NCBI GenBank assembly: GCA_965197425.1
Contig: CBDANC010000014.1
Location: 160,001 to 224,000 of the forward strand
Source: Bdellovibrionales bacterium
GTDB taxonomy: Bacteria; Bdellovibrionota; Bdellovibrionia; Bdellovibrionales; JAUICD01
Direction of reading: 5' to 3'
DNA: 64,000 bases
A program made the translations under genes and the position numbers. The notes under the pieces are model-generated. The model searched no databases, had not been told where the DNA came from, and saw only the letters and a program-made list of their open reading frames with translations. Shown here one piece after another: positions 4,732 to 45,441 of the stretch; positions within the stretch are counted from its first letter, which is position 1; every line of letters begins with the position of its first letter.

Positions 4732-4890
4732 TAAGGTCTTCCTAATCCAACACTGATTGAGCATGACGAATAATCTGGCTTCGCCAGATTTTTGTCATAC
4801 AAGTTACGTTGCCCCACAGTAATTTTAAAACCAAAACTTTTCAAAGCCTGGTGGTTGCCCACCTTTATACATGTCATCAAACTCACCTCC
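4732..4890 (-). repeat. Modular palindromic element (left hairpin-B-stem-C-hairpin Y-D-A)
   Basis: Minus strand: GAGTTTGATGACATGTATAAAGGTGGGCAACC...AACGTAACTTGTATGAC...TCTGGCGAAGCCAGA...GTCATGCTCAATCAGTGTTGGATTAGGAAGACCTTA; matches 6663-6827. Confidence 0.88.
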
Positions 4891-4898
4891 ATACTAAA

Positions 4899-5084
4899 CT
4901 ACCAACTTGCCTTTATCACACCAGGAATAAGTCCATTAGATGCGTTCTTTCTGAAACAAATTCTACAAAGAGAAAACTTTCTTATAAAACTTCTAGCCCT
5001 TCCGCAAGAACTACATCTACTGTAACCTCTTACAGCAAATTTAGGCTTTCTCTTTGCCTTTGCTATCATAGATTTTTTAGCCAA
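4899..5084 (-). CDS. rpsZ: 30S ribosomal protein S14, Zn-binding type Z (TTG start)
   Basis: 61 aa, CSSCGR...LCRICFR; GGAGG upstream of TTG at 5084. Confidence 0.95.
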
Positions 5085-5112
5085 ACTATCTACCCTCCCA
5101 AAAGTTAAAACC

Positions 5113-5172
5113 AAGGCCTTCTATTTTTTTTGCAGGGTGGTTGCCCAGCTTTACATGTGTCATATAACTACC
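5113..5172 (-). repeat. Short, internally deleted modular element (left hairpin-B-A)
   Basis: Minus strand: TTATATGACACATGTAAAGCTGGGCAACCACCCTGCAAAAAAAATAGAAGGCCTT. Confidence 0.82.
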
Positions 5173-5185
5173 TTCCTTTCACTTA

Positions 5186-5725
5186 TCATTTTCTAAAAGG
5201 CATACCTAAAGCCTGCAATAACAAATGGGCCTCTTTGTCCGATTTGGCGGTTGTACAAACTGTAATGTTCATTCCTCTTATTTGATCCGCTTTATCGTAA
5301 TTAATTTCTGGAAACACAATTTGCTCTTTCAAACCCATGTTATAGTTACCTCTTCCATCAAAACCCTTTGGTGATATACCACGAAAATCCCTAACTCTAG
5401 GCAACACAATAGAAACCAGTCTATCCAAAAAAGCCCACATCTTTTCCCTTCTCAAAGTTACATAAGCCCCCATAGGCAAATGTTTTCTTAATTTAAAGTT
5501 GGCCACAGCTTTTTTAGATCTAGCAATCATTGCCCCTTGACCCGTTATATCAGTGAGCTCACCTGCAATAACACCAGCAACTTTGGCATTTTTAACAGCT
5601 TCTCTTCCAGCACAAACACTGATAACTATCTTCTCTAAACGAGGAGTTTGCATAATGGATTTATGACCTAAATCCTTAAAAAGCTTACCCCTAACCTCAG
5701 ATGTATATAAATCAAACAACCTCAT
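5186..5725 (-). CDS. rplE: 50S ribosomal protein L5
   Basis: LPRVRDFRG...FDGRGNYNMG..EQIVFPEI. Confidence 0.98.
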   Translation of the reverse strand: MRLFDLYTSEVRGKLFKDLGHKSIMQTPRLEKIVISVCAGREAVKNAKVAGVIAGELTDITGQGAMIARSKKAVANFKLRKHLPMGAYVTLRREKMWAFLDRLVSIVLPRVRDFRGISPKGFDGRGNYNMGLKEQIVFPEINYDKADQIRGMNITVCTTAKSDKEAHLLLQALGMPFRK

Positions 5726-5727
5726 CT

Positions 5728-6096
5728 CTAAACTACCTCAGGTGCGACAGAAATTATTCTCATAAATTTTTTAGCTCTCAACTCTCTGGCAACAGGGCCA
5801 AAAATTCTAGTACCTATAGGTTCCTTGTTGTTGTTTACAAGCACAACAGCATTTTCATCAAACCGAACATAGCTACCATCCTGTCTTCTGGTTTTGTTAA
5901 TAGTTCTCACCAGTACAGCCTTTGCCTTCTCACCTTTTTTGACTTTAGATCTAGGAGCAGCTTCCTTTATACTAACCACAATAATATCACCCACTCTAGC
6001 AACCCTTCTTCTAGTTCCACCAAGTACTTTTATGCACATGACTTCCTTTGCACCAGAGTTATCAGAAACTTTAATTCTAGACTGAACTTGTATCAT
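5728..6096 (-). CDS. rplN: 50S ribosomal protein L14
   Basis: [29 protein letters not shown]. Confidence 0.99.
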
Positions 6097-6356
6097 TAAG
6101 CCCTCGAACCTTTAGCTAAAATTTTGGCCATCTTCCAGCACTTTGTTTTGCTGATAGGCCTTGTTTCGTATATCAAAACTTTGTCTCCTAACTCTGCCTG
6201 ATTTTTTTCATCATGAGCTTTAAATTTACATTTCTTTTTTATAAACTTACCAAACCTAGGATGCTTAACACTCCTAACTACCTCAACAGTGACAGTCTTA
6301 TCCATCTTGGTGCTTATAACATGCCCTGTGACAGAATTAATTTTTTTCTTTTCCAA
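6096..6356 (-). CDS. rpsQ: 30S ribosomal protein S17
   Basis: KMDKTVTV...AHDE...[11 protein letters not shown]. Confidence 0.97.
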
Positions 6357-6564
6357 CAGATATCTCCTTTGAGCCTGTTTTACTCAAACTACTCAAAACT
6401 GTATTGATCCTAGCAATGTCCCTTCTCAAGATCCTAATCTCAAGTGGATTCCCAGCTTGTTTCATATGACTTTTCATCTTTATACCAAAAATTTTCTCAG
6501 CCAAAACATTACGCTTAGACAACAACTCCTTTCTAGGTAAATCTTTTATATCCTTAAATTTCAT
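6337..6564 (-). CDS. rpmC: 50S ribosomal protein L29
   Basis: NPLEIRILRRDIARINT; operon position. Confidence 0.93.
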   Translation of the reverse strand: MKFKDIKDLPRKELLSKRNVLAEKIFGIKMKSHMKQAGNPLEIRILRRDIARINTVLSSLSKTGSKEISVGKEKN

Positions 6565-6565
6565 A

Positions 6566-6827
6566 TAAAGGCCTTCCTAATGAGGCTAAAAACAAGTGGA
6601 CTTGTTCACTTTTTTTAGCCGAGTGGTTGTCCAGCTCTACACATGTCATCAAACTCATCCTCAAGGCCTTCCCCAACATTGATTGAATCTGGCAACAAGT
6701 TGGCTCTGCCGACTTTTGCCAGGTGAATTACGTTTTGACACAATCACTTTGAAACCAAAACATCTTTTGACCGAACGGTTGCCCAGCTCTACACATGTCA
6801 TCAAACTCATTTCCATCAAGGCCTTCC
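6566..6827 (-). repeat. Tandem composite of two modular elements filling the rplP-rpmC spacer
   Basis: Three copies of motif A (aaggccttcc on + at about 6568, 6663, 6818); two copies of GAGTTTGATGACATGTGTAGAGCTGGRCAACC; one C-hairpin-D module. Confidence 0.9.
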
Positions 6828-6836
6828 TCATACTTT

Positions 6837-7244
6837 CTAAGCTCTCATTAAAAACTTTGTCTTAATAGGTAGTTTGTTTCCGGCCAACCTAAAAGCTTCC
6901 TTAGCTTGATCAGCAGTCACACCAGCCATTTCAAAAATAACAGTTCCAGGTTTTACATTTGCAACATAATACTCAGGACTTCCTTTACCACTACCCATTC
7001 TTGTTTCAGCAGGTTTTTTAGTAGTTGGAGTGTGAGGAAAAATTCTAATCCAAACTTTTCCACCACGCTTCACAGACCTACTTATAGCAATTCTACTTGC
7101 CTCTATCTGACGAGATGTAAGCTTCCCACCTGACAGAGCTTGAAGGCCAAACTCACCAAAATCAATGTCATTGCAAGACCAGGCTTTGCCTTTCACATCA
7201 TACCTAAACTGCTTTCTACGTTTAAGACGTTTTGGGCTAAGCAT
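6837..7244 (-). CDS. rplP: 50S ribosomal protein L16
   Basis: MLSPKR...[12 protein letters not shown]. Confidence 0.98.
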
Positions 7245-7917
7245 TTGATACACCTCCACCTAAAACATCACTAGCTTTTGACTTTTGATTTATTATGTCA
7301 CCAGTATAAATCCAAACCTTAACTCCAATTACTCCGTAAGTAGTTTTAGCTTCCCTTGTTCCATAATCTATATCGGCCCTTAATGTGTGAAGCGGCACAC
7401 TCTTTTCTGTGTACCACTCTGTTCTAGCTATCTCTGCACCATCAAGTCTACCAGCAACCTGAACCTTGATACCTTTAACTCCACCCCTAATAGCAGACTG
7501 AAGCGCCTTTTTTAAAGCACGCCTCCAAGAAACTCGTTTCTCCAACTGTACTGCTATATTTTCTGCCACAAGCCTTGCATCAGTATCAGGTTTTCTTATT
7601 TCCTGTATGTTCACAAAAACTTCGTTCTTGGTCATTTTGTTTATTTCATCTCTTAGAGAATCAATCCCAACACCCTTTTTCCCAATCACAAATCCAGGTC
7701 TTGCTGAAGACACAATTATCTTGATCTTATTAGCTGCTCTCTCTATCTCCACCTTGGAAACCCCAGCATTCTTGAGTTTCTTAGAAACATATTCTCTTAA
7801 CTTAAAATCCTCATGTAAGTTTTTTGCAAAATGCTTTTTTTGCTTAACATACCAACGAGAATCCCAAGTCTTGTTTATTCCAACCCTAAACCCTATAGGG
7901 TTAACCTTTTGTCCCAC
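7237..7917 (-). CDS. rpsC: 30S ribosomal protein S3
   Basis: [34 protein letters not shown]. Confidence 0.99.
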
Positions 7918-8251
7918 TATGCCTCTCCTCTAATACAATTTTAATGTGACTGGTTTTTTTTCTTATAAGTGACGCCCTTCCTCTCGCTCTAGGCATTTGT
8001 CTCTTCAAGTGCGGTCCTTGATCTACATTTATCGCCTTCACATATAAACTACCTACATCAATAGACTGCTTATACTCTGCATTTGCTATTGCAGAATCCA
8101 ACAAAGTCCTAATCAACCTAGCAGGCTTTCTATCAATCATAGATAGCCTACTTATAGCCTCAGAAACAGGCCTACCTCTAACAGCATCAGCTACAAGCCT
8201 GGCTTTCATTGAGCCCATTCTAACAAATTTTAAACTAGCACTTACACGCAT
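7901..8251 (-). CDS. rplV: 50S ribosomal protein L22 (start moved to ATG at 8251)
   Basis: [11 protein letters not shown]...SAIANAE...PRARGRA...TSHI; the longer ORF start lies inside a repeat element. Confidence 0.96.
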
Positions 8252-8253
8252 CT

Positions 8254-8348
8254 TAAGGCCTTCCGAATGAGGCAAAAAATAAGGGGGCTTTGCCTACTTT
8301 TTTTGCCGAATGGTTGCCCAGCTCTATATGTGTCATATAATTCACTCT
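8254..8348 (-). repeat. Modular element (left hairpin-B-hairpin X1-A)
   Basis: Minus strand: TTATATGACACATATAGAGCTGGGCAACCATTCGGCAAAAAAAGTAGGCAAAGCCCCCTTATTTTTTGCCTCATTCGGAAGGCCTTA; matches 35869-35934 and 6566-6640. Confidence 0.9.
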
Positions 8349-8366
8349 CACTAACTCCTCATAAAC

Positions 8367-8645
8367 CTATTTTTTAGCAGCCTTCCTATCCCCAGAATGT
8401 CCCTTAAATATCCTAGTTGGAGAAAATTCACCAAACTTATGCCCTATCATGTTTTCTGTAACATAAACAGGAACAAACTTTTTTCCATTGTGTACCGCAA
8501 ATGTCAAACCAACAGCATCTGGTATAATTGTTGATCTTCTTGACCAGGTCTTAATCACCTTTCTGCTATTTGCCTTTTTTGCCTCATCAATCTTTTTTAA
8601 AAGATGATCATCAACAAATGGTCCTTTTTTAATAGAACGACCCAT
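8367..8645 (-). CDS. rpsS: 30S ribosomal protein S19
   Basis: [31 protein letters not shown]. Confidence 0.99.
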
Positions 8646-8667
8646 AAATTACCTCTATTATTCTCCC

Positions 8668-9501: not shown

Positions 9502-9508
9502 CTAAAAA

Positions 9509-9799: not shown

Positions 9800-9857
9800 C
9801 CTCTATATTCTCTATATTTAATAACTATATTTACCAGGCAAACTAAGCTTCAATCCG

Positions 9858-10535: not shown

Positions 10536-10556
10536 ATAAATTCCCTAAATCAAGTC

Positions 10557-11357: not shown

Positions 11358-11367
11358 AAATACTCCA

Positions 11368-11988: not shown

Positions 11989-12002
11989 TAAAAAATTTCT
12001 GC

Positions 12003-14054: not shown

Positions 14055-14172
14055 AAAGGTCTCAGCAAGAACTGAAAGTACCTTGGCGAAATACAGCGCG
14101 AAGCACAAGTGTAGCCAAGATACTCTCAGTATCAGAGTTGCCCAGCTCTACACATGTCATCAAACTCATTCC
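14054..14172 (-). repeat. Modular element (left hairpin-B-hairpin X2-degenerate A)
   Basis: Reverse complement closely matches 45345-45441; left part matches the copy at 6779-6810. Confidence 0.9.
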
Positions 14173-14175
14173 CAT

Positions 14176-21521: not shown

Positions 21522-22574
21522 TTAAAGGCAAATAGTATTTAGTATTGCCTTTGATACAATGTATGGATCTGCATTTGCCCCAGGCCTTCTATCTTCTATA
21601 TAGCCACATCCTTTTTTGTCAGTGGAAATAGGTATTCTTATCGAAGCTCCTCTGTTAGAAACCCCCGATTTGAATTCACTGATATGACATGTTTCATGTA
21701 AACCCGTTAACCTTCCTTTTAATCCATGTCCGTATTGAACTATATGTTCTTCATGCTTTTCTTCTAATTTTTTTATAGCATCAGCAATGGCTGCTTTTCC
21801 ACTTTTTGGATCTCTCATCTTTTTTGTAGAAAAGTTGGTATGCATACCTGCACCATTCCAATCACCTTCTATAGGCTTATTTTCAAAGGAGACAGATATA
21901 CCATATTTTTCTGCAATTCTATTCATTAAGTACCTGGCAACCCAAATATGGTCAGACATAGTAAGCGGGTCAGCTGGCTCTCCTTCTCTTCTAAATCCAA
22001 TTTGAAACTCCCATTGGGCGGGCATAACTTCTGCATTGATTCCATAGATGTTTAGACCAGCGAATTCACAACACTTAGCATGCTCCTCTACAACTACCCT
22101 GCCGTAAACCTTGCCAGCTCCTACTCCACAATAAAAAGCTCCTTGTGGCGGAGGATAACCCCCTTGCGGCCATCCAAGCGGCCACCTTTCCGCCCCACTA
22201 CCTTTTAATAGAGTGTATTCTTGCTCAAAGCCTATGTAAGGTTCGTGCTTTGCCACTTTATCCATAAGTACCCTAAGCTCTGCTCTTCTGTTGGTAGAGT
22301 GAGGAGTTTCGTCGTGGTTGAACACCTCACATAAGACGATATAATTTCCAGCACCTCTTATAGGGTCTGGAGCAAAAAACACAGGCATTAGAATACAATC
22401 AGAATTTCTACCAAGTGCCTGCCAAGTAGATGAACCATCAAAACTCCACTCAGGAAACGAGGATAAGTCTCGATCATCCTGATGAAACAACATTCTGGTT
22501 TTTGATCTAAGCTCTTGGGTTGGGGAGGCGCCATCTAACCAGATATATTCTGCATAATCTAATTGTTTAACCAT
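21522..22574 (-). CDS. glnII: Glutamine synthetase type II
   Basis: 350 aa; AEYIWLDG, WSFDGSST, GINAEVMPAQWEFQ, DWNGAGMHTNFST, EDRRP. Confidence 0.92.
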   Translation of the reverse strand: MVKQLDYAEYIWLDGASPTQELRSKTRMLFHQDDRDLSSFPEWSFDGSSTWQALGRNSDCILMPVFFAPDPIRGAGNYIVLCEVFNHDETPHSTNRRAELRVLMDKVAKHEPYIGFEQEYTLLKGSGAERWPLGWPQGGYPPPQGAFYCGVGAGKVYGRVVVEEHAKCCEFAGLNIYGINAEVMPAQWEFQIGFRREGEPADPLTMSDHIWVARYLMNRIAEKYGISVSFENKPIEGDWNGAGMHTNFSTKKMRDPKSGKAAIADAIKKLEEKHEEHIVQYGHGLKGRLTGLHETCHISEFKSGVSNRGASIRIPISTDKKGCGYIEDRRPGANADPYIVSKAILNTICL

Positions 22575-23871: not shown

Positions 23872-26523
23872 TTATAACCTCGCTAGTGGACCTTTATATT
23901 CAAAAGACAGCAAAGTTATGTCATCGAATTGTGGAGCTTCTTTTATAAATCTTGCAACATCAAAATCCACAACCTTTATTATATTCTTTGGCCCATTAAA
24001 CTCTGCATCTTTTAACAGATTTGTTAGCCTATTTTCACCATAAAACTCTTGTTTATCATTTTGAGACTCGGTAACCCCGTCCGTGTAACAGATAATATTA
24101 TCCTCTTTACTAAGGGTTAAATTCTGATGCGTATATTTAACACCATCAAAAATTCCCAATACTGGTCCGTCTGTGTTGTTGAGAATCTTAAGTTTACCAT
24201 CTTTTTGTTTTATAATCGGAGGATTGTGACCTGCGTTTGTTAGTTCAACTTTTCCAGTCTTAAGATCAACCACACACAACACAAGAGTGACAAACACACA
24301 CCATGTATTATTGCTACATAATTCTTTATTAACCATTGTCACTATTTCATAGGAGGTACTAAATTGCTGGTCTATAACCTTATTTATCATGGCTTTGGTG
24401 GCGGACATAAACAAAGCAGCGGGTATGCCTTTTCCTGAAACATCCCCCACTGAAAAATAAAATCTCTCCTTATTTAATCCGACATAAGAAAAATCATAAA
24501 AATCACCAGAGACCATCTGTGCTGGCTTTAACATGGCATCTACTGAAAATTCATCTGTTTCCATACTATCAGGTAACATGCTCATTTGAACCTGTTGCCC
24601 AGTAACCAGGTCCCGTTTTATTCTATCTTGTTGCCTTTTTATTGTTTCATAAGTTTTGTTAATCTCATTATTGGCCCTTCTTAGTTTTGTACGATTCACC
24701 GCAAATATAGAAAACAACATAAGGATCAGTATTACAGTAATTGTAGCAGCATAAATTGTCTGAATTCGATAGGTGTTAAACGGATCCAGTATTTCATCCG
24801 TACCAATTTCACGAACAAGCCCAAAATTATGAATATTACTCCATTTCCAAGAGCCAATAACACTGCTTCCTGTATAACTTTTATAAGGTTTGGTCATGTC
24901 TTTATTTGTTTGTCCCTGGGTTACACTGGACACTGACTTTATCAAAGGAGCTTCTGAGTCTTTCGGATTGGTGCTAAGCTTCAACCCGACGGAAGATTCA
25001 TTAGACTCGTCTAAAACTTCCTGCTGAATGAGTTTTTCAACAAACCTACTCTCGGTTATCATAAAACCTTTTGAGTTGACCAAAAAAAGCTCTCCAGATG
25101 TACCTAAAAGAGATCTTTTTAAAATAGAATTTATTTCACTGATTGGTACAACGACTATTAAGTAGACTCCTTTCACCGGATCAACTGATTTACCAAACAC
25201 CATTTCTACCTTGTCATCTGTAAAGCCAGCCTCTGGGTTTTTTATGTTGTCATTTAAGTAGTACACATCATGTGGTGGAACTTTTAGTCTTTCAATTAAT
25301 TTATTTGTCAGTTCGTTTTCTGTATCCATCTTATTTTTGGTATTGCTCGCTACAACTGAACCATTTTCTGTTATTACCATAAACTTGCTAATGGAGTGTT
25401 TTTCGAAAGTCTCTGCTTTTTTTTCTATAGCTTTGCTTAACTCAGAAAATTGTTGTCTATCTATTTTGTGATCAAATTGTTCTTCAACCACATGCTCAAC
25501 ACTGTCTGCTAAAATGGCTGTTTCCAAATTTTTATAATCCATCCATTTTACTATGGAGTCATACGCTGATTGCAAATCTAACCTTAAATGTGAATTTATA
25601 TCCTTGCCTGTTTTTTCCTTTACCTCACCAATAAACCACCACGACATCATGATTGTGGCAAAAATTGCTGTAAGTGTGGCCGTGGCAAAAGGCCAAGATT
25701 CCAAGACATTAGATTTAAAAATATCTAGATAAAATTTATCAGAACCCATTCTGTTTTTATATCTTTTAAAAATTCGATATAGCGGAAATATAGAAAGTGC
25801 CAATACCAACAAGACACTCAAAACCATTGAAAAACTAAATAAAACTCTAAGTCTTTTTTGTTTTGTTCTAAGAACATTTTCGTCTTGATTAGTTCTTTCG
25901 TCCACAAGATCAAAGAACTCCAAGATAGGGTTCATAACACCACCCTTTGCTTTGTTATATTCTTGAGAATGAACGAGAGACATGGCCAACTTTTGATTTG
26001 GCTTGCCTTTAATTGTATATTTACCTTGTTTATCCTTAAACAAACCAACCATGGCATTCATGGACTCTTCTTCTAGTTTAACCAGTTGATCCGATTTTTT
26101 TTGGCTTGTTTTTAGTAGCTCTAACTCCACATCCTGCAAATTAGATTGCCTTAGCATATCTATGTAGGATATTGGGGTTTTTGAAACCCTAGGGAGTCTA
26201 CCTCCCTCTGATAATACTACATCCCAATAGACTTTGTGATAGTCTTTAGGTCTGGAGATCATTCCTCTTCTTATGTCTATTATCTCGTCAAAATGGTCTT
26301 TGTAGATTTCAACTCCTGTTACAGAGTACATTCTGGCCATTTTGGTTAAATCGTCAGATGTCTGTCTCAGGGTATCTGCCAGAAGATAGTATTCTCGTTT
26401 GTCTTCTGATATTTCTTTTAGATCACTTTCATAATTTACAATTTTGCGTGATATAAGAAGACTAACTGCAACCAACAAAAAAGCTGAAAGGCTTATCAAT
26501 AATTGTCCATTTTTAAAGGGCAT
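23872..26523 (-). CDS. Membrane sensor SpoIIE/RsbU-type PP2C phosphatase, copy 1
   Basis: TM segments, two periplasmic domains, VSGDFYD, GDVSGKG, NAGHNPP, YTDGVTE, DDITL. Confidence 0.92.
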   Translation of the reverse strand: MPFKNGQLLISLSAFLLVAVSLLISRKIVNYESDLKEISEDKREYYLLADTLRQTSDDLTKMARMYSVTGVEIYKDHFDEIIDIRRGMISRPKDYHKVYWDVVLSEGGRLPRVSKTPISYIDMLRQSNLQDVELELLKTSQKKSDQLVKLEEESMNAMVGLFKDKQGKYTIKGKPNQKLAMSLVHSQEYNKAKGGVMNPILEFFDLVDERTNQDENVLRTKQKRLRVLFSFSMVLSVLLVLALSIFPLYRIFKRYKNRMGSDKFYLDIFKSNVLESWPFATATLTAIFATIMMSWWFIGEVKEKTGKDINSHLRLDLQSAYDSIVKWMDYKNLETAILADSVEHVVEEQFDHKIDRQQFSELSKAIEKKAETFEKHSISKFMVITENGSVVASNTKNKMDTENELTNKLIERLKVPPHDVYYLNDNIKNPEAGFTDDKVEMVFGKSVDPVKGVYLIVVVPISEINSILKRSLLGTSGELFLVNSKGFMITESRFVEKLIQQEVLDESNESSVGLKLSTNPKDSEAPLIKSVSSVTQGQTNKDMTKPYKSYTGSSVIGSWKWSNIHNFGLVREIGTDEILDPFNTYRIQTIYAATITVILILMLFSIFAVNRTKLRRANNEINKTYETIKRQQDRIKRDLVTGQQVQMSMLPDSMETDEFSVDAMLKPAQMVSGDFYDFSYVGLNKERFYFSVGDVSGKGIPAALFMSATKAMINKVIDQQFSTSYEIVTMVNKELCSNNTWCVFVTLVLCVVDLKTGKVELTNAGHNPPIIKQKDGKLKILNNTDGPVLGIFDGVKYTHQNLTLSKEDNIICYTDGVTESQNDKQEFYGENRLTNLLKDAEFNGPKNIIKVVDFDVARFIKEAPQFDDITLLSFEYKGPLARL

Positions 26524-26720
26524 AAGCCTTTCCCCCTTTTCTCTTTAAGAATAGATTTTACGAGTAGCGATCTAAACTATCAAGATGTATTTATAGATCT
26601 AAGTGTGTGAGAGCGAAACACTAAGGTAGTTATAGACTTTAATAAGTATGGTTGACTTAAAACGGTCTTTGAGTACTTATTTGCGTAGGCAAACCACAAA
26701 CTATTGTGGCAAGTTTTCGT

Positions 26721-26780
26721 TGCAAGATGGAGTATCCGGTAGCTCGTTGAACTTATAACCCGAAGGTTGTCTGTTCAAAC
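26721..26780 (+). pseudogene. Degenerate, 3'-truncated tRNA-fMet copy
   Basis: TGCAAGATGGAGTATCCGGTAGCTCGTTGAACTTATAACCCGAAGGTTGTCTGTTCAAA aligns with the intact tRNA-fMet at 29679-29755, mostly by C>T and G>A changes. Confidence 0.85.
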
Positions 26781-26820
26781 AAAAGCTGGTTTCGTTAGCT
26801 TTTGACAGATGAATTATGTT
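26770..26820 (-). repeat. Decayed C-hairpin Y module of the repeat family
   Basis: Plus strand aaaagctggtttcgttagcttttgacagatgaattatgtt vs 6697-6734 aagttggctctgccgacttttgccaggtgaattacgtt. Confidence 0.6.
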
Positions 26821-26837
26821 ATAAACTTATTTTTTAA

Positions 26838-29486
26838 TTATTTAAAATTAGACCTGTATTCAAAAGACAGCAAAGTTATGTCATCGAATTGTGGAGCTTC
26901 TTTTATAAATCTTGTAACATCAAAAGCTACTGATTCTATAATTTCTTTTGGGTTGTTAAATTCTCCACTTTTTAATAGGGTTATTAGTCTATCTTCTCCA
27001 TAAAATTCTTGTTTGTTGTTTTGAGCTTCAGTAACTCCATCTGTGTAACAGATAATATTATCTCTTTTTTCAAGAGATATATCTTGGTGTGTATATTCAA
27101 CATCATCAAAAATACCCAATACTGGTCCGTCTGTATTGTTAAGAATCTTAAGTTTACCATCTTTTTGTTTTATCATTGGAGGGTTGTGACCTGCGTTTGT
27201 GAGTTCCACTTTTCCAGATTTAAGGTCAACCACGCATAGTACAAGAGTAATAAAAACACACCATGAATTATTCATACATAATTCTCTGTTTACTCTAGTT
27301 ACAATTTCATGTGAAGTGTAAACCTGTTGATCTATAACCTTATTTATCATAGCTTTGGTGGCAGACATAAAAAGTGCTGCTGGTATGCCTTTTCCCGAGA
27401 CATCTCCCACTGAAAAGTAGAACTTATCTTGATTTAATCCAATATAGGAAAAGTCATAAAAATCTCCAGACACCATTTGTGCTGGTTTTAGCATGGCATC
27501 TACAGAAAATTCTTTTGTCTCTATAATATCAGGTAGCATACTCATCTGAACCTGCTGCCCGGTGGTAAGATCTCTTTTCACCCTATCTTGTTGTCTTTTT
27601 ATTGTTTCATAAGTTTTCGCAAGCTCATCGTTGGTGCTTCTTAGCTTGGTACGATTTACTGCAAATATAGAAAACAACATAAGAATTAGTACGACTGTTA
27701 TTGTTGAAGCGTAGACAGTGTGCATGCGATATGTATCAAAAGCCCCAAGCGCTTCACCTGTGCTAATTTCTCTAATAAGTCCGAAATTGTGAATGTTGCT
27801 CCATTTCCAAGAGCCAATAACACTGCTTGCTAGGTAGCTTGTGTATGGAGCTGTTACATTTTCATTAACCTTGTTATCAATAACACTTGCAACTGATTTT
27901 ATCAGTGGGGATTCCGGGTCCTTGGGATTTGTGCTGATTCTCAGCCCTATTGCTGAACCACTGCTCTCTTTGATATCTTCTTGTTGCACAAACTTTTCAA
28001 AAGATACACTTTCTGTTATCAACAAACCATCTGAATTAACTAAATAAAGTTCACCTGAAGAATCTAAGAATGATCTTTTTAAGATTTTGCTTACCTCACT
28101 TATTGGTACAATTAGTACCGTCAAATATGTGTCATTTCCTATATCAGATGTGGTACCAAACATAAGCTCTATCTTGTCGCCAGTTAATTTAGGCGCGGCT
28201 TTATCATCATTTAGGTTATAGGCATTGATACGTAAAGTTGTAAGCCTTTCTGACATCTCTGCTGGCAGTTCAAATTCTTCATCTACCTGCAGTGCTGTAT
28301 TACTTGCAACTACCTTACCTTCTTTAGTTAGTACAACGAACTTACTGTTGGAAGGTCCTCCGAATGTGTTCATTCTTTTTTCTATAGCTAGGCTTAGTTC
28401 AGAAAATTGCTGTCTACTTATTAATCTGTTATTAAATCTTTCTTTTATTACGTATTTTACATTGTCAGCTAAAATAGACGTTTCGAGTGTTTTTAGTTCT
28501 GTCCAGTGAGTCAATGAATCATATGCAAACTGTAGATCTATTTTTAGCCTAGAGCTTAGATCTTTGTTTGTTTTTTCTTGTACTTCACCAATAAACCACC
28601 ATGAAACCATTACGGTGGCAAAAATAGCGGTAAAGGTAGCGGTAGCAATTGGCCACGATTCTATGAAATTAGCTTTTATAAAACTTAAAAGATCTTTTTT
28701 AGTGATTTCAGGTTTTTTTATTTTTTTATCCCGCATGAGATATATAGGGAATAGGGAGAGTACTAGTACCAAAAGCACAGACAGTCCCATTGACATATTG
28801 AACAAAACTCTAAGTCTATCTTGCTTTTTTCTATATAGACTCTCTTGCAGGCTTATTCTTTCTTCAACTAGATCAAAGAACTCCAAGATAGGACTCATGA
28901 CCGCACCCTTAGCCTTGTTGTATTCTTGACTGTAAAGTAGTGATAGAGCTTTGTTTTTGTTGGACTCACCTTTTACGGTATATTTACCTTTCCTATCTTT
29001 ATACAGACCTGCCATGGTATACATAGCTTCTTTTTCTAGCTCAGATAGCTCGTATGAATTTCTCTCACTTTCTTTTAATAGCTCCAATTCCATGTCTGTT
29101 AGGTTGGCTTCTCTTAATATGTCTAGGTAAGAAATGGGATTTTTTGAAATTCTGGGAAGATTTCCTCCTTCTGACAAAACGATGTCCCAATAGACCTTAT
29201 AGTATTCTTCAGGTCTGGATATCATTCCGTATCTTATATCTAGGATTTCTTCAAAATAATCTTTGTATGATTCATTGCCAGTTACAACATACATTCTGGC
29301 CATTTTGGTTAAATCGTCGGAGGTCTGCCTCATGGTATCTGCCAAAAGGTAGTACCCTCTCTCATCTTCTGCTATTTTTTCTAGTTGCCCTTCATAATGT
29401 ACAATTTTACGGGATATAAATAGACTTATTACAACCAACAAAAAAGCTGAGAGGCCTATTAATATTTGCCCGTTTCTGAGGGACAC
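26838..29486 (-). CDS. Membrane sensor SpoIIE/RsbU-type PP2C phosphatase, copy 2
   Basis: Full-length paralogue of 23872-26523 with near-identical phosphatase domain. Confidence 0.92.
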   Translation of the reverse strand: MSLRNGQILIGLSAFLLVVISLFISRKIVHYEGQLEKIAEDERGYYLLADTMRQTSDDLTKMARMYVVTGNESYKDYFEEILDIRYGMISRPEEYYKVYWDIVLSEGGNLPRISKNPISYLDILREANLTDMELELLKESERNSYELSELEKEAMYTMAGLYKDRKGKYTVKGESNKNKALSLLYSQEYNKAKGAVMSPILEFFDLVEERISLQESLYRKKQDRLRVLFNMSMGLSVLLVLVLSLFPIYLMRDKKIKKPEITKKDLLSFIKANFIESWPIATATFTAIFATVMVSWWFIGEVQEKTNKDLSSRLKIDLQFAYDSLTHWTELKTLETSILADNVKYVIKERFNNRLISRQQFSELSLAIEKRMNTFGGPSNSKFVVLTKEGKVVASNTALQVDEEFELPAEMSERLTTLRINAYNLNDDKAAPKLTGDKIELMFGTTSDIGNDTYLTVLIVPISEVSKILKRSFLDSSGELYLVNSDGLLITESVSFEKFVQQEDIKESSGSAIGLRISTNPKDPESPLIKSVASVIDNKVNENVTAPYTSYLASSVIGSWKWSNIHNFGLIREISTGEALGAFDTYRMHTVYASTITVVLILMLFSIFAVNRTKLRSTNDELAKTYETIKRQQDRVKRDLTTGQQVQMSMLPDIIETKEFSVDAMLKPAQMVSGDFYDFSYIGLNQDKFYFSVGDVSGKGIPAALFMSATKAMINKVIDQQVYTSHEIVTRVNRELCMNNSWCVFITLVLCVVDLKSGKVELTNAGHNPPMIKQKDGKLKILNNTDGPVLGIFDDVEYTHQDISLEKRDNIICYTDGVTEAQNNKQEFYGEDRLITLLKSGEFNNPKEIIESVAFDVTRFIKEAPQFDDITLLSFEYRSNFK

Positions 29487-29678
29487 TAACCTTTCCTCCT
29501 TTTTTATAAAATTTAATTTTACGAGTAGTGTTTAAAACTATCAAGATGTATTTTAAGAGGTGGTATTGGAGATTAATCAGGTGACTATATATGAGATAGC
29601 ACATTAGATAAGACATCAATGTATATTGTATATAGTGATACTTGTTGTAATCTCAAAGTAGAATGCTTGTGTGGTTGT

Positions 29679-29755
<77 letters not shown>

Positions 29756-31074: not shown

Positions 31075-31587
31075 ATGGCAAAGAAAAAAAAGAAAAAAGC
31101 AGTAAAAAAAGCTGCGAAAAGAAGAGTTGTTAAAAAAGCCACTAGAAAGGCTAAAAAGAAGGTAACCAAGAGAAGAAAGGTTGCTAAGAGAAGAGTTACT
31201 AAGAAAAAGAAAGTAACTAAGAGGAAGGCTAAGAAAAGGGTAACCAAGAAGAAAAAGGTTACTAAGAAAAAGAAGGTAACCAAAAAAAGAAAGGTTGCTA
31301 AGAAAAAGCCTAAGAAGAAGAAAAGAAAGTCTTCTAGAAAGCCAAATGCGGCATTCATGAAGCCTTTGCAACCTGACGCTGTGTTGGCGGCTATTGTTGG
31401 ATCAAAGCCTCTTCCAAGAACAGAAGTTGTAAAGGGTTTGTGGAAGTACATTAAAAGACACAGTCTGCAAGATTCCAGAAATAGAAGGAACATCAATGCA
31501 GACAGTAAGCTTAAAGCCGTGTTTAATGGTAAAGGCACAGTAAGCATGTTCGAAATGAGCAAGCTTATCTCTAAGCACTTGAAGTAG
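31075..31587 (+). CDS. Histone H1/Hc2-like basic repeat protein fused to a SWIB/MDM2 domain
   Basis: About 85 aa of KKKKVT/KRKVA repeats, then NAAFMKPLQP...LPRTEVVKGLWKYIK...LQD...INADSKL...MFEM. Confidence 0.88.
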   Translation: MAKKKKKKAVKKAAKRRVVKKATRKAKKKVTKRRKVAKRRVTKKKKVTKRKAKKRVTKKKKVTKKKKVTKKRKVAKKKPKKKKRKSSRKPNAAFMKPLQPDAVLAAIVGSKPLPRTEVVKGLWKYIKRHSLQDSRNRRNINADSKLKAVFNGKGTVSMFEMSKLISKHLK

Positions 31588-33835: not shown

Positions 33836-33869
33836 GAAAAGGTATTGACGCATATATCGATGTTGGGAC

Positions 33870-33956
33870 TATTTTGTCAGATTCAATCAGTGTTGAGGGA
33901 GATGGCATCGTGATAGAAAGCTGGGCAACCATTCGGCCAAAAGATGTTTTGGCTTT
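33870..33956 (+). repeat. Modular element (D-linker-B-stem)
   Basis: ATTCAATCAGTGTTGAGGGAGATGGCATCGTGATAGAAAGCTGGGCAACCATTCGGCCAAAAGATGTTTTGG; matches reverse complements at 6754-6790 and 45043-45082. Confidence 0.85.
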
Positions 33957-34068
33957 ACTTGTGCTTTGCACTAATGCTAGTGCATAACCCATGAGTAAGA
34001 CGCAGAGAACATGATATTATTTCTACCTCTGATTTATAGACAAAACAAAGAGTTTGCGGGGACCTTCC

Positions 34069-34132
34069 GGAACGTAATTCGTCCGACAAAAAGCAAGCAA
34101 GCTCACTTTGTTGTCGGACTCAATCAGTGTTG
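34069..34132 (+). repeat. C-hairpin Y-D module abutting the tRNA-Ser 5' end
   Basis: AACGTAATTCGTCCGACAAAAAGCAAGCAAGCTCACTTTGTTGTCGGACTCAATCAGTGTTG. Confidence 0.85.
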
Positions 34133-34446: not shown

Positions 34447-34536
34447 GTTTTAAAGTGACTGTGCCAGAACGTAAGGTCTACGACAAAAACCAAGCAAGCT
34501 TGGTTTGTTTTCGGGTTCAGTCAGTGTTGATGGAAA
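34447..34536 (+). repeat. Linker-C-hairpin Y-D module
   Basis: TTTTAAAGTGACTGTGCCAGAACGTAAGG...AAACCAAGCAAGCTTGGTTT...TTCAGTCAGTGTTGATGGAAA. Confidence 0.82.
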
Positions 34537-35844: not shown

Positions 35845-35934
35845 GTTAAGTAACTGTGCAGGAACGTAGGGCAACCACTCGGAAAAAAAAGTAGGCGGAG
35901 CCTCCTTATTTTTTACCTCGTTGGAAGACCTTTA
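35845..35934 (+). repeat. Modular element (C fused directly to B-hairpin X1-A)
   Basis: TAACTGTGCAGGAACGTAGGGCAACCACTCGGAAAAAAAAGTAGGCGGAGCCTCCTTATTTTTTACCTCGTTGGAAGACCTTTA. Confidence 0.88.
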
Positions 35935-39199: not shown

Positions 39200-39253
39200 T
39201 GATATTAGTTTTCCTTTTCTTTTTGCCTCTAATTTTCTAATAAAACACCACCA

Positions 39254-40447: not shown

Positions 40448-40698
40448 TTTAAACTACCTGATTTTATGCTAGACAGAGTGTTTTCGTGCTGCGTTTTCAT
40501 GGCAGTTATCAACAAGTCTGGTTTTATTATACTACCACTTGCAATTTCTCTATAGTCCTGTATTATGCTCTTTATAACAGCACCATCCTTGAATACTTTG
40601 GTGGCTATAGAGCATTTGGCACTGCCCCAATCCTCTGTTTGAACATGATAACAATTACCATTATGGACAATTTCAGAATTAAACCCTTTTAACACCAT
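40444..40698 (-). CDS. Small hypothetical protein (GFNS...YHVQTEDWG motif)
   Basis: 84 aa, coupled to ctpA by an ATGA overlap. Confidence 0.6.
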   Translation of the reverse strand: MVLKGFNSEIVHNGNCYHVQTEDWGSAKCSIATKVFKDGAVIKSIIQDYREIASGSIIKPDLLITAMKTQHENTLSSIKSGSLK

Positions 40699-40745
40699 TA
40701 CAAACTTCTAACAAAACTATTCACTTATTTCAAATTATAGATAAA

Positions 40746-42470
40746 ATGAATCTCAGCATGACAAAGGCACAACACATTCTAATCATAATCACGGCTATGC
40801 AGCTTACAGGGTGTGCCAGAACCATTCTATTTAACTCAGGCCATAAATCCAATTGTATAGGCATAAATCTACCTAAAATATCAAACCCTATACGGATTGA
40901 AGGTAAAGCTGAATATAAAAGAAGAGTAATACCTGAAGACGGTGAGTCAGGTTTGGGGGAAATAGATGATAAAAGTTATCCAATAAAATTTGCAGAAGTG
41001 GAGGTACTTTCTAACAACGAAACCACATACTGCACCAGCACGGATGAGTTTGGTGAATTTGTAGTAGAAATTCCAAATGCCGGGTCTAATCATACTGTAA
41101 AAGTAAATTCCCTATCCCCAAAATCTGCCAACCAGATTGGAAATGTCTTCGTACAAAATAACCCTCTTGAAGATAACCACTACTCCATATCAAAGAGTAT
41201 ATCCAGAAGTAATTCTGAACCTGTACATCTTATAGCAAGTGCGAATGGAGCAGGTGTTTTAGGAGGTGCATTCAATATATTGGATAAAGTAATTAAAGCA
41301 AACTTATTTTTAAATGTTATGACCACAGATTGCGGAAATGAATGCGACCCTTTTGACTCCTCCCCTCCAGCACACTTATATTGGGAGGCAGGAGTTGATC
41401 CATTAGCAAACTTTCTTTGTAAATACAAAAGATGTAATCCTGCTACAGACAAAGAACTAAGTTTTTTTGATAGAGATAGTTCACAGATTTATATACTGGG
41501 CGGTACAAACGGTGATATCAGATTCTCAGATACAGATCACTTTGATGATGCAGTAATTATCCATGAATATTTTCACTTTGTCTTAACAAACACCATAAAT
41601 TTGTTTTCACCTGGGGGAGAGCATGAGTCTAACACGGTGCTTGATCCTAGGCTTGCTCTTAGCGAAGGCTTAGCAAATGGTTTAGCTATTTTAGTCTTAG
41701 AGAACCCGAGCTATGTTGATACAGTAGGTATTGGAAGCGATGGCGCAATAAAAGTCAGATTTAGTGCTGAAGGTAATGCAACGATTGCGGTAGATGAAGG
41801 AGGAGGAAATTTTATAGAGTCAGCAATAACAAGAGCAATCTGGGACATGCTGGATCCCGTGCTATATAATGATCGCATGATAGGTAGCAATGATAATGAC
41901 AATGTAACTATAGGATTTGCAGAGTTTTGGGGAGTATTAACCGGAGAGTTTGCCTCTGAGGAATATCACTTTAAAGACTATGGTTTATTGATGGGTTTAT
42001 TCAATGAAAGGCCTAATGCAACACCTATTGATGAAATCCTCGATCGTGAGATGCAAAAAAGCAATAGAGAGGACTATGCATCAGAATATAACCCTTGTAT
42101 AATTTATGAATTACAAACTCCACCAAATCACAACAACAATAAAGAGAATACCTATGTGAATACAAATCAATTTTACTCCAATGATTTTTATATATATAAA
42201 CACGAAGGAGGAGCTTTTTCTGCAAACCTAGGTTATAGTGATAGTCAAGAGGCAAATTTGGATATGTATGTGTACAGAGAATTCTATACATTTGGAAAGG
42301 CAGATGATCTAGCAGGATTTAGCAATAGAGAAAATGATGGTGGTGAAGAAATAACACGAATTTCTGATCTGCCGAGTGGTGTGTATATGATAAATATTGT
42401 ATCTATTGATCCAGCACAACGTGCCGAATATCGCTTATCTTTAAATGGTGAACAATGTCTCGATTCTTAA
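40746..42470 (+). CDS. Lipoprotein with an HEXXH zinc-metallopeptidase motif and a C-terminal PPC-like domain
   Basis: Lipobox LTGC; IIHEYFH...SEGLAN; ANLDMYVY...GVYMINI. Confidence 0.7.
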   Translation: MNLSMTKAQHILIIITAMQLTGCARTILFNSGHKSNCIGINLPKISNPIRIEGKAEYKRRVIPEDGESGLGEIDDKSYPIKFAEVEVLSNNETTYCTSTDEFGEFVVEIPNAGSNHTVKVNSLSPKSANQIGNVFVQNNPLEDNHYSISKSISRSNSEPVHLIASANGAGVLGGAFNILDKVIKANLFLNVMTTDCGNECDPFDSSPPAHLYWEAGVDPLANFLCKYKRCNPATDKELSFFDRDSSQIYILGGTNGDIRFSDTDHFDDAVIIHEYFHFVLTNTINLFSPGGEHESNTVLDPRLALSEGLANGLAILVLENPSYVDTVGIGSDGAIKVRFSAEGNATIAVDEGGGNFIESAITRAIWDMLDPVLYNDRMIGSNDNDNVTIGFAEFWGVLTGEFASEEYHFKDYGLLMGLFNERPNATPIDEILDREMQKSNREDYASEYNPCIIYELQTPPNHNNNKENTYVNTNQFYSNDFYIYKHEGGAFSANLGYSDSQEANLDMYVYREFYTFGKADDLAGFSNRENDGGEEITRISDLPSGVYMINIVSIDPAQRAEYRLSLNGEQCLDS

Positions 42471-42916
42471 TTGCTGTTAGTTTGGTATCTGGCTTTTACT
42501 TTGCGTTTAAAAGTCAGGTGTCATTTTCAAATGACAATATAAGTACACAAATTGTATCGGCTTCTGTTAGTAAACCAGGTCGTGTTTTGAACATGTGGTT
42601 TGAAAAAAAAGTAGGATGGAGAGAGAGACTAGGGTTTAAGGGTACGGTAGAAAAATTGATTTTAAACCTGGATGCTAAGGTTGCTATGGAAAATGTTAAG
42701 CTTAATTTTGTTTTAGTAAAAAACACAGAAATTATTAGCACTAACATTCCGGATCAAGTTACTTTGATTCCAGATAAGATCTTGGAATTTGAAATATCAA
42801 TTGAAAGAAGCGAAGATCTTCACCTGATATTAAGAGCACGTGGCTTATTGCCGGATAAACCAGATAAGATGGTCTATTTAGGTACAGCTCATTTCTACCA
42901 TAACACTGACGGTTAA
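42455..42916 (+). CDS. Hypothetical exported protein
   Basis: Hydrophobic N-terminus; overlaps the upstream gene. Confidence 0.55.
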   Translation: MSRFLIAVSLVSGFYFAFKSQVSFSNDNISTQIVSASVSKPGRVLNMWFEKKVGWRERLGFKGTVEKLILNLDAKVAMENVKLNFVLVKNTEIISTNIPDQVTLIPDKILEFEISIERSEDLHLILRARGLLPDKPDKMVYLGTAHFYHNTDG

Positions 42917-43064
42917 TAGATTTAAAAACCTGACTTTCTTTAAAGGAATTACTTTAAAAAATTGATGCTATATGCAAAAAATTAAAAATACTAAACTAGG
43001 TTTAAAAAATCTTGTACTTACTTGCAGGTAGGCCATACAAAATGAAAATCGAACAGTAGGTGTA

Positions 43065-44921
43065 TTGAGTAGGTGTGTTGTGAGTAACCAAAATGGAAAT
43101 TCAAATAGTCATGGCCTAAGTTGGATTATAGGCGCAGGTATTGTTGGTGCTGACATTGGCACGTCTGTGTTCTATAGCACTGGATTGATGTTCCCCTATG
43201 TTGGGTATTTATCCCCATTATTTATTTTATTTGTATGTCTAATGATGTGGGCATTTAAAAGAACTTATGAAGAAGGCATGGCCTTAAGTCCTCACAATGG
43301 CGGTGCTTATAGCATGATTTTAAGAAGTGTGGGCAGAAGGACTAGTGTACTTCCTGGAGCATTAACTGTTTTGACTTATCTAGCAACTGCTGCCGTGAGT
43401 GCTTTGTCTGGGGCATTTTATCTTTCTTCTTTGGGATCATTTGTTCCAATACAGCAGGTTGTGCTAATTGCCGCTATCCCAATTATATTATTTGGCATTT
43501 TAAACACGAAGGGAATCAAAGAACCTGCAAAACTTGTTACTGTGATAACAGGATTACACTTTTCTTTGCTGGCGCTTATTATTTTGCTTGGTTTAGGTTT
43601 TATTGTGTTTAGGTGGAGTGATGTAGATTTTGGAAAAATGAGCAAAATAACAGTGGATACTAATCTAACCTTTGCGATGTTGATGCATGGTTTTGCTGGA
43701 GCGTTCTTAGGTATTACTGGTTTTGAGTCAGCAGCACAAATTTTTGAAGAACTAAAAGCCCCTGCTCTTAAAACATTACGGTACTTATATAAGGCAGTAA
43801 TTATTTTAGTTTCCATTACCGCACCTTTAATTTCGTTTATGTGTCTTAGTATTTTATCAGAGCAAGAAATAATCGATAACAGAGAATATCTCGTAGCATC
43901 TTTGGGTTATAAAATTGGTGGGAACTTTCTAAAGCATGTAGTGGTATTCGATGCAGCACTTACTTTGTTTGCTGCTGTTAACACAGCGTTTGTTGGTTTT
44001 ATAGGTTTGGCTGCCACCATGGCAAAGCAAGGTAATCTGCCACAAAAGCTACTGACTAGATGGGATAATAAGTATCCTTGGATAGAAGGATACCCTCATA
44101 TCGCTTTGTCTTTTATGTGTTTGGCTCTTTTTATGATTTCAGTTGTACCTGGAAATGTTGACACTTTAGCAAAAGTTTATGAGATGGCTTTTTTATGCGT
44201 AATGTGTAGCTTTTGTGTTGGCGTCATTTTAATGCGAAACAAAAAGCAGGGGAAGAGAGTTCCAAAGCCCTTTTTAAGTGATGTATTTATTGTGTTTAAC
44301 AAAAAAATTCCTATTATTCCTGTGATCTCATGCGTGGTTTTAACAATAGCATTTTTAACATTAGTGGTATTTGCTAACACTGAATCTAGAATTATGGGAA
44401 TAGAGATGTTTCTAGGTATAGTTTTAATAATGGCCTTCTACAGGTGGGGTGTCTTAGAAAGCCGGCTAGAAAATAAGTCTGATTTTGGCTTAGGCCTGGG
44501 TATTTATTCTAACCACTCTAAAATAGAGGAAGTATCAAAGGATTTACCAAAGTATGTAACTTGTGTTGGGGCAACTAGACCCAGACATCTTATAACAAAA
44601 TCCATAAACTATGTTATTAAACAGAATAAATTAAAACCCTTTGAGATGATCTTGTTCCATGTGGATGAGAGAGGAGAGGGTTTTGTTTATTCCGCTTTAC
44701 AGAGAGTGATTTTGCAACAAATTGTACCGGTTTACAGAAATAGGGATATTTTAATTACCCTAAAAACACTACCTGATGAATTAATTGAGGGTCTCCAGAC
44801 TCTTAAAAGAAAAAACAAAATAAACAAGATAATGATAGGAAGAAGTGGCACACTAGAAGGCTCAGAGAAATTAGCAAAAGAAATTTATAAAGAACTTCAA
44901 ATAGAAGTTGTACGTATTTAA
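43065..44921 (+). CDS. APC-family amino acid permease
   Basis: VGADIGTSVFY, NGGAY, GITGFESAAQ; about 12 TM segments plus a soluble tail. Confidence 0.85.
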   Translation: MSRCVVSNQNGNSNSHGLSWIIGAGIVGADIGTSVFYSTGLMFPYVGYLSPLFILFVCLMMWAFKRTYEEGMALSPHNGGAYSMILRSVGRRTSVLPGALTVLTYLATAAVSALSGAFYLSSLGSFVPIQQVVLIAAIPIILFGILNTKGIKEPAKLVTVITGLHFSLLALIILLGLGFIVFRWSDVDFGKMSKITVDTNLTFAMLMHGFAGAFLGITGFESAAQIFEELKAPALKTLRYLYKAVIILVSITAPLISFMCLSILSEQEIIDNREYLVASLGYKIGGNFLKHVVVFDAALTLFAAVNTAFVGFIGLAATMAKQGNLPQKLLTRWDNKYPWIEGYPHIALSFMCLALFMISVVPGNVDTLAKVYEMAFLCVMCSFCVGVILMRNKKQGKRVPKPFLSDVFIVFNKKIPIIPVISCVVLTIAFLTLVVFANTESRIMGIEMFLGIVLIMAFYRWGVLESRLENKSDFGLGLGIYSNHSKIEEVSKDLPKYVTCVGATRPRHLITKSINYVIKQNKLKPFEMILFHVDERGEGFVYSALQRVILQQIVPVYRNRDILITLKTLPDELIEGLQTLKRKNKINKIMIGRSGTLEGSEKLAKEIYKELQIEVVRI

Positions 44922-45085
44922 AAGTCTTACTAACGAGGCGAAAAACAAGGAGGCTATGCCTACTCTGGTTCAATTGGCTTACGGGATAAACCTTTATATT
45001 TTCCAATTGAATGAACCTCCTTGCGGTCGGTTCTTTTGCTGAGTGGTTGCCCAGCTTCTCACCACGATGCAGATCTCATCACACT
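44919..45085 (-). repeat. Long version of the modular element (B-extended nested hairpin X1-A)
   Basis: Minus strand: AGCTGGGCAACCACTCAGCAAAAG...GCAAGGAGG..TTCAATTGG...CCAATTGAA..GAGTAGGCATAGCCTCCTTGTTTTTCGCCTCGTTAGTAAGACTTTTA. Confidence 0.82.
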
Positions 45086-45138
45086 CGTTGATACTACTTG
45101 TGCAGGGCCCAAAATGGTGGCATACCAATGTGTTATAT

Positions 45139-45215
45139 GGTGGCTGTAGCTCAGTTGGTAGAGCGCAGGATTGTGGTTCCTGTGGCCGCGGGTTCGATCC
45201 CCGTCAGCCACCCCA
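45139..45215 (+). tRNA. tRNA-His (GTG)
   Basis: G-1 GTGGCTG acceptor stem, CAGGA-TTGTGGT-TCCTG, C73 discriminator, CCA end. Confidence 0.96.
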
Positions 45216-45228
45216 ATTGAAAAAAATC

Positions 45229-45441
45229 CGAAGACTTTTAGTACCTTGGGTTGTATATTATGAAACTGTGTCAAAACGTATTTAGACTGGGCAATTTTCA
45301 GTTTCAGTGAAGACCTTAGTCACTCCTGTCGTATTACACCTTACAGAGCTGGGCAACCCTGATACTGAAAGTACCTTGGCTACACTTGTACTCTGTACTG
45401 CATTTCGCCAAGGCAACTTTCAGTTTCAGTGAAGACCTTTA
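45229..45441 (+). repeat. Tandem composite of modular elements (C-deleted B/X2-A, spacer, B-hairpin X2-A)
   Basis: Direct repeat GGCAAYTTTCAGTTTCAGTGAAGACCTT at about 45290 and 45412; AGAGCTGGGCAACC at 45345. Confidence 0.87.

Follow-up and report, generated by a model that had tools for sequence, protein, structure and literature searches.

What are the short repeats that recur between the genes of the window, a 64,000-nt stretch of a Bdellovibrionales genome (contig C14, positions 160001-224000), and how could they come to lie inside ribosomal protein operons? A sequence-only reading of the window had listed twelve intergenic loci sharing four motifs (A, B, C and D) in different orders around interchangeable hairpins, and had proposed an undescribed, non-coding modular family. 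The genome under study, G000, comprises 1.60 Mb in 15 contigs at 35% GC. The search set contains 61 genomes of the same order, including G000 and G001, its sole congener among them, whose orthologues are ~69% identical to those of G000. The family of hairpin repeats is real and genome-wide. On balance, we regard it as a genus-restricted family, likely a non-autonomous mobile element, with operon copies whose frames are predicted to relay ribosomes.

Anatomy and distribution of the repeats

The motifs lie where the sequence-only reading had placed them, and three of the four occur far above chance. Compared with the mean of 100 shuffles, the window contains 9 copies of B (0.16 expected), 6 of A (0.23) and 5 of D (0.12). 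Motif C alone is at chance level (5 versus 4.7), and it counts solely as the left end of C-D units. Exact matches across G000 number 154 for A, 84 for B and 17 for D, and comparison of the genome with itself yields 182 motif-bearing loci, 30.6 kb in total. The inventory of four motifs was incomplete; it overlooked a B2-A2 type, the heads and a 66-nt module, E.

Read on the strand that has A last, a unit of 65-135 nt runs from a head of ~28 nt through a left box and a long imperfect hairpin to a right box ending in CCTT. Three unit types are distinguished by their matched ends: B-A, B2-A2, and C-D. The innermost end pairs are matched in 153 of 176 cases (B-A 115, C-D 21, B2-A2 17), when ~95 would be expected by random pairing of the same counts. 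Because left and right ends are matched, the free interchange of motifs between the same flanks that had been claimed is unsupported. Most of the different motif orders arise where the reading runs over a border between tandem or nested units; units are arranged in head-to-tail tandem arrays and also nested inside each other's A-tracts. The 151 units with a B box are preceded by head H1 (80), H2 (23), H3 (19) or none that was recognised (29); H2 opens with a Shine-Dalgarno (SD)-like run and an ATG. Module E, itself a hairpin, has 44 copies in G000, nearly all following an A-tract. As had been proposed, the ends are asymmetric: heads and right ends are unrelated in sequence, and the units have no terminal inverted repeats. 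One fixed and one variable end, together with the tandem arrays, form the pattern expected of IS91/rolling-circle derivatives. Flank bias at the fixed right end is restricted to ~4 nt.

The hairpins are conserved as structures. In an alignment of units from the two species, compensatory (two-sided) changes occur at 15 of 18 pairs, and 89.7% of cells are paired versus 72.7% after shuffling; the covariation score was reached by none of 500 shuffles, a figure inflated by the kinship of the units. Of the 148 units of G000, 123 fold better on the bottom strand with RNA parameters (114 with DNA parameters), as do 82 of 87 units of G001 (69 with DNA parameters). Mismatches on the top strand are of the kinds that turn into G-T or G-A on the bottom strand, A-C outnumbering G-T by 24:10 in G000 and 35:6 in G001. 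In the operon copies, the better-folding bottom strand is the antisense one, so the selected form appears to be single-stranded DNA (ssDNA) rather than mRNA.

The family extends to the congener and, as far as the searches reach, stops there. In the comparison among genomes, the exact A motif occurs 145 times in G000 versus 6 times in the control, and none of the 60 relatives has such an excess. A strict B-gap-A pattern is found in 0 of 40 relatives; this pattern misses the sister family of G001, which comprises 123 loci and has a head motif of its own, with 91 exact copies, and whose units are collinear in alignment with the long units of G000. A covariance model built from 15 G000 and 16 G001 units matches 66 times in G000 and at least 68 times in G001, both of which went into the model, and under strict filters in 0 of the 59 other genomes of the order. 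G002 and G004 carry different hairpin families, and 222 kb sampled from G003 contain no hairpin repeats. Strict B-gap-A matches further afield (15 in GTDB, 9 in metagenomes, none viral) are single, and inspection of all 24 led us to judge them chance; the lone hairpin-like one is part of a type I restriction gene of Shewanella. One 281-nt array has no match in phage or plasmid collections. The units match no Rfam family model, and likenesses to a hepatitis delta virus (HDV)-like ribozyme, a cobalamin riboswitch and an attC site were dropped as without Rfam support. No account of the family was found in the open-licence PMC and bioRxiv literature; supplements, which could list such repeats, lie outside that scope. 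The modular, hairpin-forming, non-autonomous family of the sequence-only reading is supported. It is genus-restricted, apparently uncatalogued, and of the MIRU/BOX kind.

Insertion sites and predicted relay frames

Comparison of filled and empty orthologous sites had been suggested as a way to define the ends of the element and any target duplication, and empty sites were indeed found in relatives. Among 690 conserved junctions, 78 are filled in G000 only, 9 in G001 only and 12 in both, an overlap that exceeds chance. In G001 and G003, the ribosomal protein junctions that are filled in G000 are tight and lack an insert. Four of the operon loci are not assembly artefacts, as contigs of a public sequencing run, probably of the source sample, cover them with zero differences.

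The landing site varies with the head. Of the 99 terminal units, 19 have their end 0-5 nt ahead of a start codon (3.6% by chance), and units with H2 end within 5 nt of one in 10 of 20 cases, versus 9 of 79 for the other heads (p = 4e-4). Head type predicts target, H2 being enriched just before start codons. Some copies interrupt genes. The start of a gene that we take, from its sequence features, to be hemB (C13:253091-254191) is fused in frame to a unit containing module E, which adds ~47 residues; here a 7-nt duplication matches the right end. At one filled/empty site, an 11-nt duplication matches the first bases of the head. The junctions have no fixed-length target duplication, their best matches being 2-11 nt and barely above permutation, and no clean element-skipping joint occurs in contigs of related strains among the matches listed.

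The S10-spc ribosomal protein operon and fusA occupy the left 14 kb of the window on the minus strand, and all five operon junctions in the window contain a minus-strand insert with an open frame of 25-56 codons that begins close to the stop of the preceding gene and stops on or near the next start. At rpsN/rpsH, a junction empty in G001, a composite unit (H2, B, C-hairpin-D, A; 4731..4892) carries a 53-codon frame whose end overlaps the rpsH start (TAATG). The rplE/rpsN junction has a truncated H2-B-A unit (5113-5170, in a feature spanning 5086..5170), with a 25-codon frame (5163-5086) preceded by an SD-like sequence and stopping 1 nt before the rpsN TTG. At rplP/rpmC, where the gap in G001 is only ~8 nt, a tandem array of A, H2-B-C-D-A and H2-B-short hairpin-A (6554..6831) holds two chained frames, one of 56 codons followed by one of 34 that overlaps the rpmC start. 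An H2-B-short hairpin-A unit at rpsS/rplV (8253..8351) has a 32-codon frame with its stop 1 nt before the rplV ATG. Upstream of fusA, an H2-B-long hairpin-A(variant) unit (14056..14175) contains a 37-codon frame that begins right behind the upstream stop and ends 7 nt short of the fusA ATG. Contigs of three related strains diverge and break exactly at the fusA start, which fits a variant unit or an empty site alike. The earlier statement that no element encodes a protein needs qualifying in view of these frames and of the in-frame copy in hemB. The operon copies carry open frames that, judged from their sequence, are predicted to hand ribosomes on to the following gene.

Eighteen tight junctions were scored by a rule allowing at most two open reading frames (ORFs) and at most 30 untranslated nt: 15 conserved junctions in the sense orientation and three small-gene junctions, with 6 antisense junctions excluded. 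Twelve passed, versus 3.9 expected from shuffles and 4.6 from swaps of family members (p ~2e-4). The core translation and transcription junctions (rpsD, rpsH, rpsN, rpmC, rplV, fusA and rpoC) all passed (7/7). The spacing from stop to start is varied, comprising ATGA, TAATG, gaps of 1-7 nt, longer overlaps and in-frame fusions. A similar arrangement occurs at rpsQ-rplN in G004, a member of another genus (L019:10743-11523), where an unrelated hairpin repeat of ~200 nt forms a four-unit array in the spc operon, with chained ORFs leading to the rplN start. Under a looser rule, 83% of this array can be covered by chained ORFs (137 of 795 nt untranslatable, p = 0.003), and a related array on contig C11 (L017) gives p = 0.047. 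Contig C11 also holds a second S10 operon, closely resembling that of G004, and single-copy genes are duplicated on contigs C1 and C4; the three contigs therefore resemble contaminants from a related genus.

Several features of the relay test weigh against a selected role for the frames. The seven core junctions gave rise to the hypothesis, and the other 11 pass in 5 cases versus ~2.5 expected. The reverse complement passes at 7 of the 18 junctions. The thresholds were chosen after a looser test whose null was near 0.5, and the swap pool may be short of some head starts. The H2 copies, being related to each other, are non-independent. Across the whole family, 100 of 151 units have this frame open, and units near starts (22/31) do so about as often as those elsewhere (62/94, p = 0.66). 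These figures bear on an alternative account, in which the ancestral unit was stop-free in one frame and landing at TATG automatically yields ATGA and TAATG overlaps with no selection. The family-wide openness, the stop that an ATGA-type start gives in one upstream frame, and the freely varying peptide sequences all fit such a by-product. However, the composites at rpmC (272 nt) and rpsD (277 nt) are open from end to end (shuffle probabilities 0.08 and 0.02), the length of H2 units is divisible by 3 in 8 of 8 cases at starts versus 3 of 10 elsewhere (53 of 120 in comparison units), and among the units of G001, which seldom turned up at tight junctions, no more than 21 of 82 are open. We consider a by-product rather unlikely. 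A selective filter is probable, in line with a proposal made for MIRUs: inserts in tightly coupled essential operons would last mainly where the hairpin lets ribosomes pass and re-initiate.

Candidate mobilisers and modes of spread

The sequence-only reading had named Y1/RAYT, IS110 or reverse transcriptase proteins as possible mobilisers, and none was found by a search directed at targeted families rather than at full annotation, a scope that could miss a divergent single-copy nuclease; G000 is an assembly of 15 contigs. Y1 HUH transposases (PF01797), expected for REP/REPIN-RAYT or IS200/IS605 derivatives, tyrosine integrases (PF00589), expected for integron attC cassettes, and reverse transcriptases (PF00078), expected for a group II intron, retron or DGR, are absent in G000 and G001; as PF00589 was detected in neither, XerC and XerD are apparently missing from both. 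The IS110 DEDD recombinase (PF01548) is absent in G000. Y2 transposases (PF04986) were found in 0 of 5 genomes, with the control set also giving no match above cut-off. Each of the five genomes has one above-cut-off GIY-YIG match, in a UvrC-sized frame of ~610-650 amino acids, and none of the small Ssn type. No multi-copy transposase was seen in G000 or G001, a search by motif patterns gave no candidate, and none of the genes with repeats on both sides is nuclease-like. Two members of a G001 family of secreted proteins (23 members of ~260 amino acids, e.g., L101:13229-14032) have repeats on both sides, and are possibly passengers.

The only multi-copy, mobile-looking genes in G000 are 19 dispersed genes for four-helix-bundle IVP proteins (PF05635, TIGR02436), a family mentioned in PMC3936711. 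They encode 97 amino acids, are mostly 68-85% identical to the query copy (e.g., C12:183944-184234 and C15:391954-392244), and are flanked by 7-8-mer microsatellites, often with a leader hairpin covering the SD sequence. Thirteen are uninterrupted, five contain module E in frame and one is cut off at an A motif. IVP expansions also occur in G002 (14), G004 (19), G021 (21 matches) and G025. Rpn/YhgA nuclease genes are expanded in G001 (16), G002 (16) and G004 (19), some G001 copies having short tandem repeats upstream by eye. G000 has one Pfam match to them, on a contamination-like contig, and one weak relative. In G001, 4 of 17 lie near repeats versus 129 of 1336 ORFs.

We tentatively favor a homology-guided copy-in mechanism. 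Copies would be pasted into short sites that resemble the element's own left end: a trans-acting nuclease, possibly lost since, would cut a bottom-strand ssDNA hairpin at its fixed right end, and 4-11 nt of head-target homology would guide the joining of the copy. The mosaics may then arise as copies recombine at shared boxes and A-tracts. The excess of orphan right ends (57) over orphan left ends (19) speaks for a fixed right end. Several points weigh against the scheme. Many of these orphan ends are matches that are decayed or resemble targets. Overall, the signal of target duplication is weak (mean 3.85 versus 3.37 nt, p ~0.01, 48 arrays), and duplications of at least 6 nt occur in 7 of the 48 arrays versus 4.2 expected (p = 0.09). 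Short-hairpin units often have a stable GNA-type loop on the top strand, blurring the strand argument. The cutting step is without support, as no mobilising enzyme was found. A bolder reading would be a transposase-free element in which the interchangeable head sets the target by short homology, one head directing it to start codons and supplying the SD sequence, start and open frame that would render it harmless in ribosomal protein operons, while an unrecognised class of protein moves the element, the orphan IVP family being the candidate in G000; this seems a long shot.

Copy-in nonetheless ranks ahead of two other modes of spread. The element may need no dedicated enzyme: hairpins and A-tracts would stall replication or repair, a nascent or transforming strand would switch template by short homology, and copies would recombine at the boxes. 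The lack of any detected transposase, reverse transcriptase or integrase, even of the XerC/D type, in G000 and G001 accords with such host-driven spread, as do the presence of ComEC, the failure to find SbcD, and junctions with microhomology rather than fixed-length duplication. However, the precise right end and a sequence kept across two species so divergent suggest a recognising protein, and SbcD is missing in G003 too, yet its sampled 222 kb have no such repeats; we hold this mode to be unlikely, though not greatly so. Less likely still is that the IVP genes act as the autonomous elements and carry the hairpin repeats as non-coding passengers, an arrangement like that of RAYT/REP or Ssn/NTS. 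IVP is the sole gene of its kind in G000, repeat pieces occur in 6 of the 19 copies, head H1 is modestly like the flanking microsatellites (score 12.4 versus 11.5, p ~1e-5), and G002 and G004 have both IVP expansions and hairpin repeats while G003 has neither. Yet G001 lacks any IVP gene although it has the homologous family at 123 loci. Repeats are not enriched beside IVP genes (5/19 versus 257/1281 ORFs, p = 0.56), only 1 of 12 motif-by-strand tests exceeds the intergenic control, and module E is not significantly similar to IVP coding DNA. In G021, with its 21 IVP matches, the repeats sampled appear by eye to be pieces of IVP genes.

Two further explanations are very improbable. If the units were host-selected regulatory RNAs, such as leaders, riboswitches or processing signals recruited to ribosomal protein and tRNA genes, their covarying structure, the sense bias between co-directional genes (70 versus 32) and the several copies adjoining tRNAs would be accounted for. 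Their sites are mostly lineage-specific, however, the antisense strand folds better, Rfam has no match, copies interrupt genes, and tRNA adjacency is not enriched (9/34 versus 263/1300); this role is thus hardly tenable. The least probable is a classical miniature inverted-repeat transposable element (MITE) moved by a DDE transposase. It has in its favor a short ORF of 120 amino acids (C13:132116-132478), which may be a fragment of an IS1595-type transposase. Against it stand the lack of terminal inverted repeats, of fixed-length target duplication and of a multi-copy transposase in either species, and the head-to-tail arrays.

Known repeats and the remaining loci

MIRUs (mycobacterial interspersed repetitive units) are described as short, apparently mobile repeats that insert at start codons and whose ORF is coupled to the gene downstream, in many cases by a -4 overlap; relay insertion of this type was proposed from mycobacteria, so start-codon insertion with a coupled mini-ORF is already described (PMC12548453). 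The H2 subset appears similar, inserting at start codons with an ORF that runs to the downstream gene. The family differs in that such insertion is limited to one head type and most copies lie outside tight junctions, in its long covarying hairpins, three matched end pairs and nested modules, and in its variable stop-to-start spacing. Its host is unrelated to mycobacteria, and the likeness is drawn from descriptions rather than from sequence comparison. BOX elements of Streptococcus pneumoniae and S. suis are modular tandem repeats with ORFs in large copies (PMC3049150). With these two precedents, to call the family an undescribed system was too strong. BOX elements share with it a modular, structured, lineage-expanded make-up, matched end modules (BOX A/C, E/F), nesting and a probable parasitic origin. 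The likeness is of design alone, namely matched end modules around a variable interior and tandem variation: the terminal inverted repeats of BOX have been likened to ISSpn2, and BOX varies in the number of internal boxB modules (PMC3049150). In the present family the ends are asymmetric, tandems consist of whole units and the choice of target depends on the head.

In-frame copies are a further point of comparison. Rickettsia palindromic elements are hairpin repeats able to sit in frame within genes, as the present family does in hemB and five IVP genes. Enterobacterial ERIC/RU units are also hairpin repeats of this in-frame kind, and ORF-bearing enterobacterial repeats are described (PMC2759123). 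In-frame insertion is rare in the family, however, the main pattern being insertion at junctions with relay frames. With REP/BIME/REPIN-RAYT and NTS/SRM-Ssn systems it shares oriented hairpins, conserved non-palindromic feet, mosaic arrays and a likely ssDNA substrate (PMC11893778). It differs in the absence of a Y1 or small GIY-YIG gene from G000 and G001, and in its longer units (65-135 nt versus 20-50 nt). The genome is a compact test case: it combines ~180 loci with three head types that differ in landing preference, and its congener offers empty sites. The lack of detectable transposases, integrases and reverse transcriptase narrows the possible mobilisers to a few proteins. If true, the relay would show a way for a selfish hairpin to spread into the cell's most tightly coupled operons.

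Eleven of the twelve loci first listed are clear members of the family. The twelfth, near 26770 (26720..26825), is marginal, being mainly a degenerate copy of tRNA-Met (~26720-26779, plus strand; no ARAGORN call) that abuts a decayed C-type hairpin remnant (~26779-26825, minus strand; 84% over 43 nt, E = 3e-5). Tandemly duplicated genes of the SpoIIE/PP2C type surround it (23872-29755), the duplication taking in the degenerate, oppositely oriented tRNA-Met copy. Outside the operon, four loci lie on the plus strand in close succession: the right half of a C-D unit followed by head H1, B and a truncated long hairpin (33868..33990), downstream of ahcY; a C-hairpin-D unit (34060..34132) ending 2 nt before tRNA-Ser (34135); another such unit (34447..34529); and a hybrid left end, C joined to a B core, with a short hairpin and A (35845..35932). 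On the minus strand, an H1-B unit with a short hairpin and a decayed A (44921..45075) has module E inserted in its left A-tract (44969..45030; 66 nt as inserted). After tRNA-His follows a plus-strand tandem array of a decayed A, a chimeric short unit, A, head H3, B, a long hairpin and A (45229..45439).

Among the other genes of the window, a glutamine synthetase (21522-22574) best matches type II (GlnII), with 454 bits slightly below the family cut-off of 500. GC skew in G000 tracks the local gene strand. Three very Lys/Arg-rich, histone H1-like proteins are encoded in G000, one in the window (31075-31587) and two elsewhere (C12:102364-103110 and C14:271990-272349).

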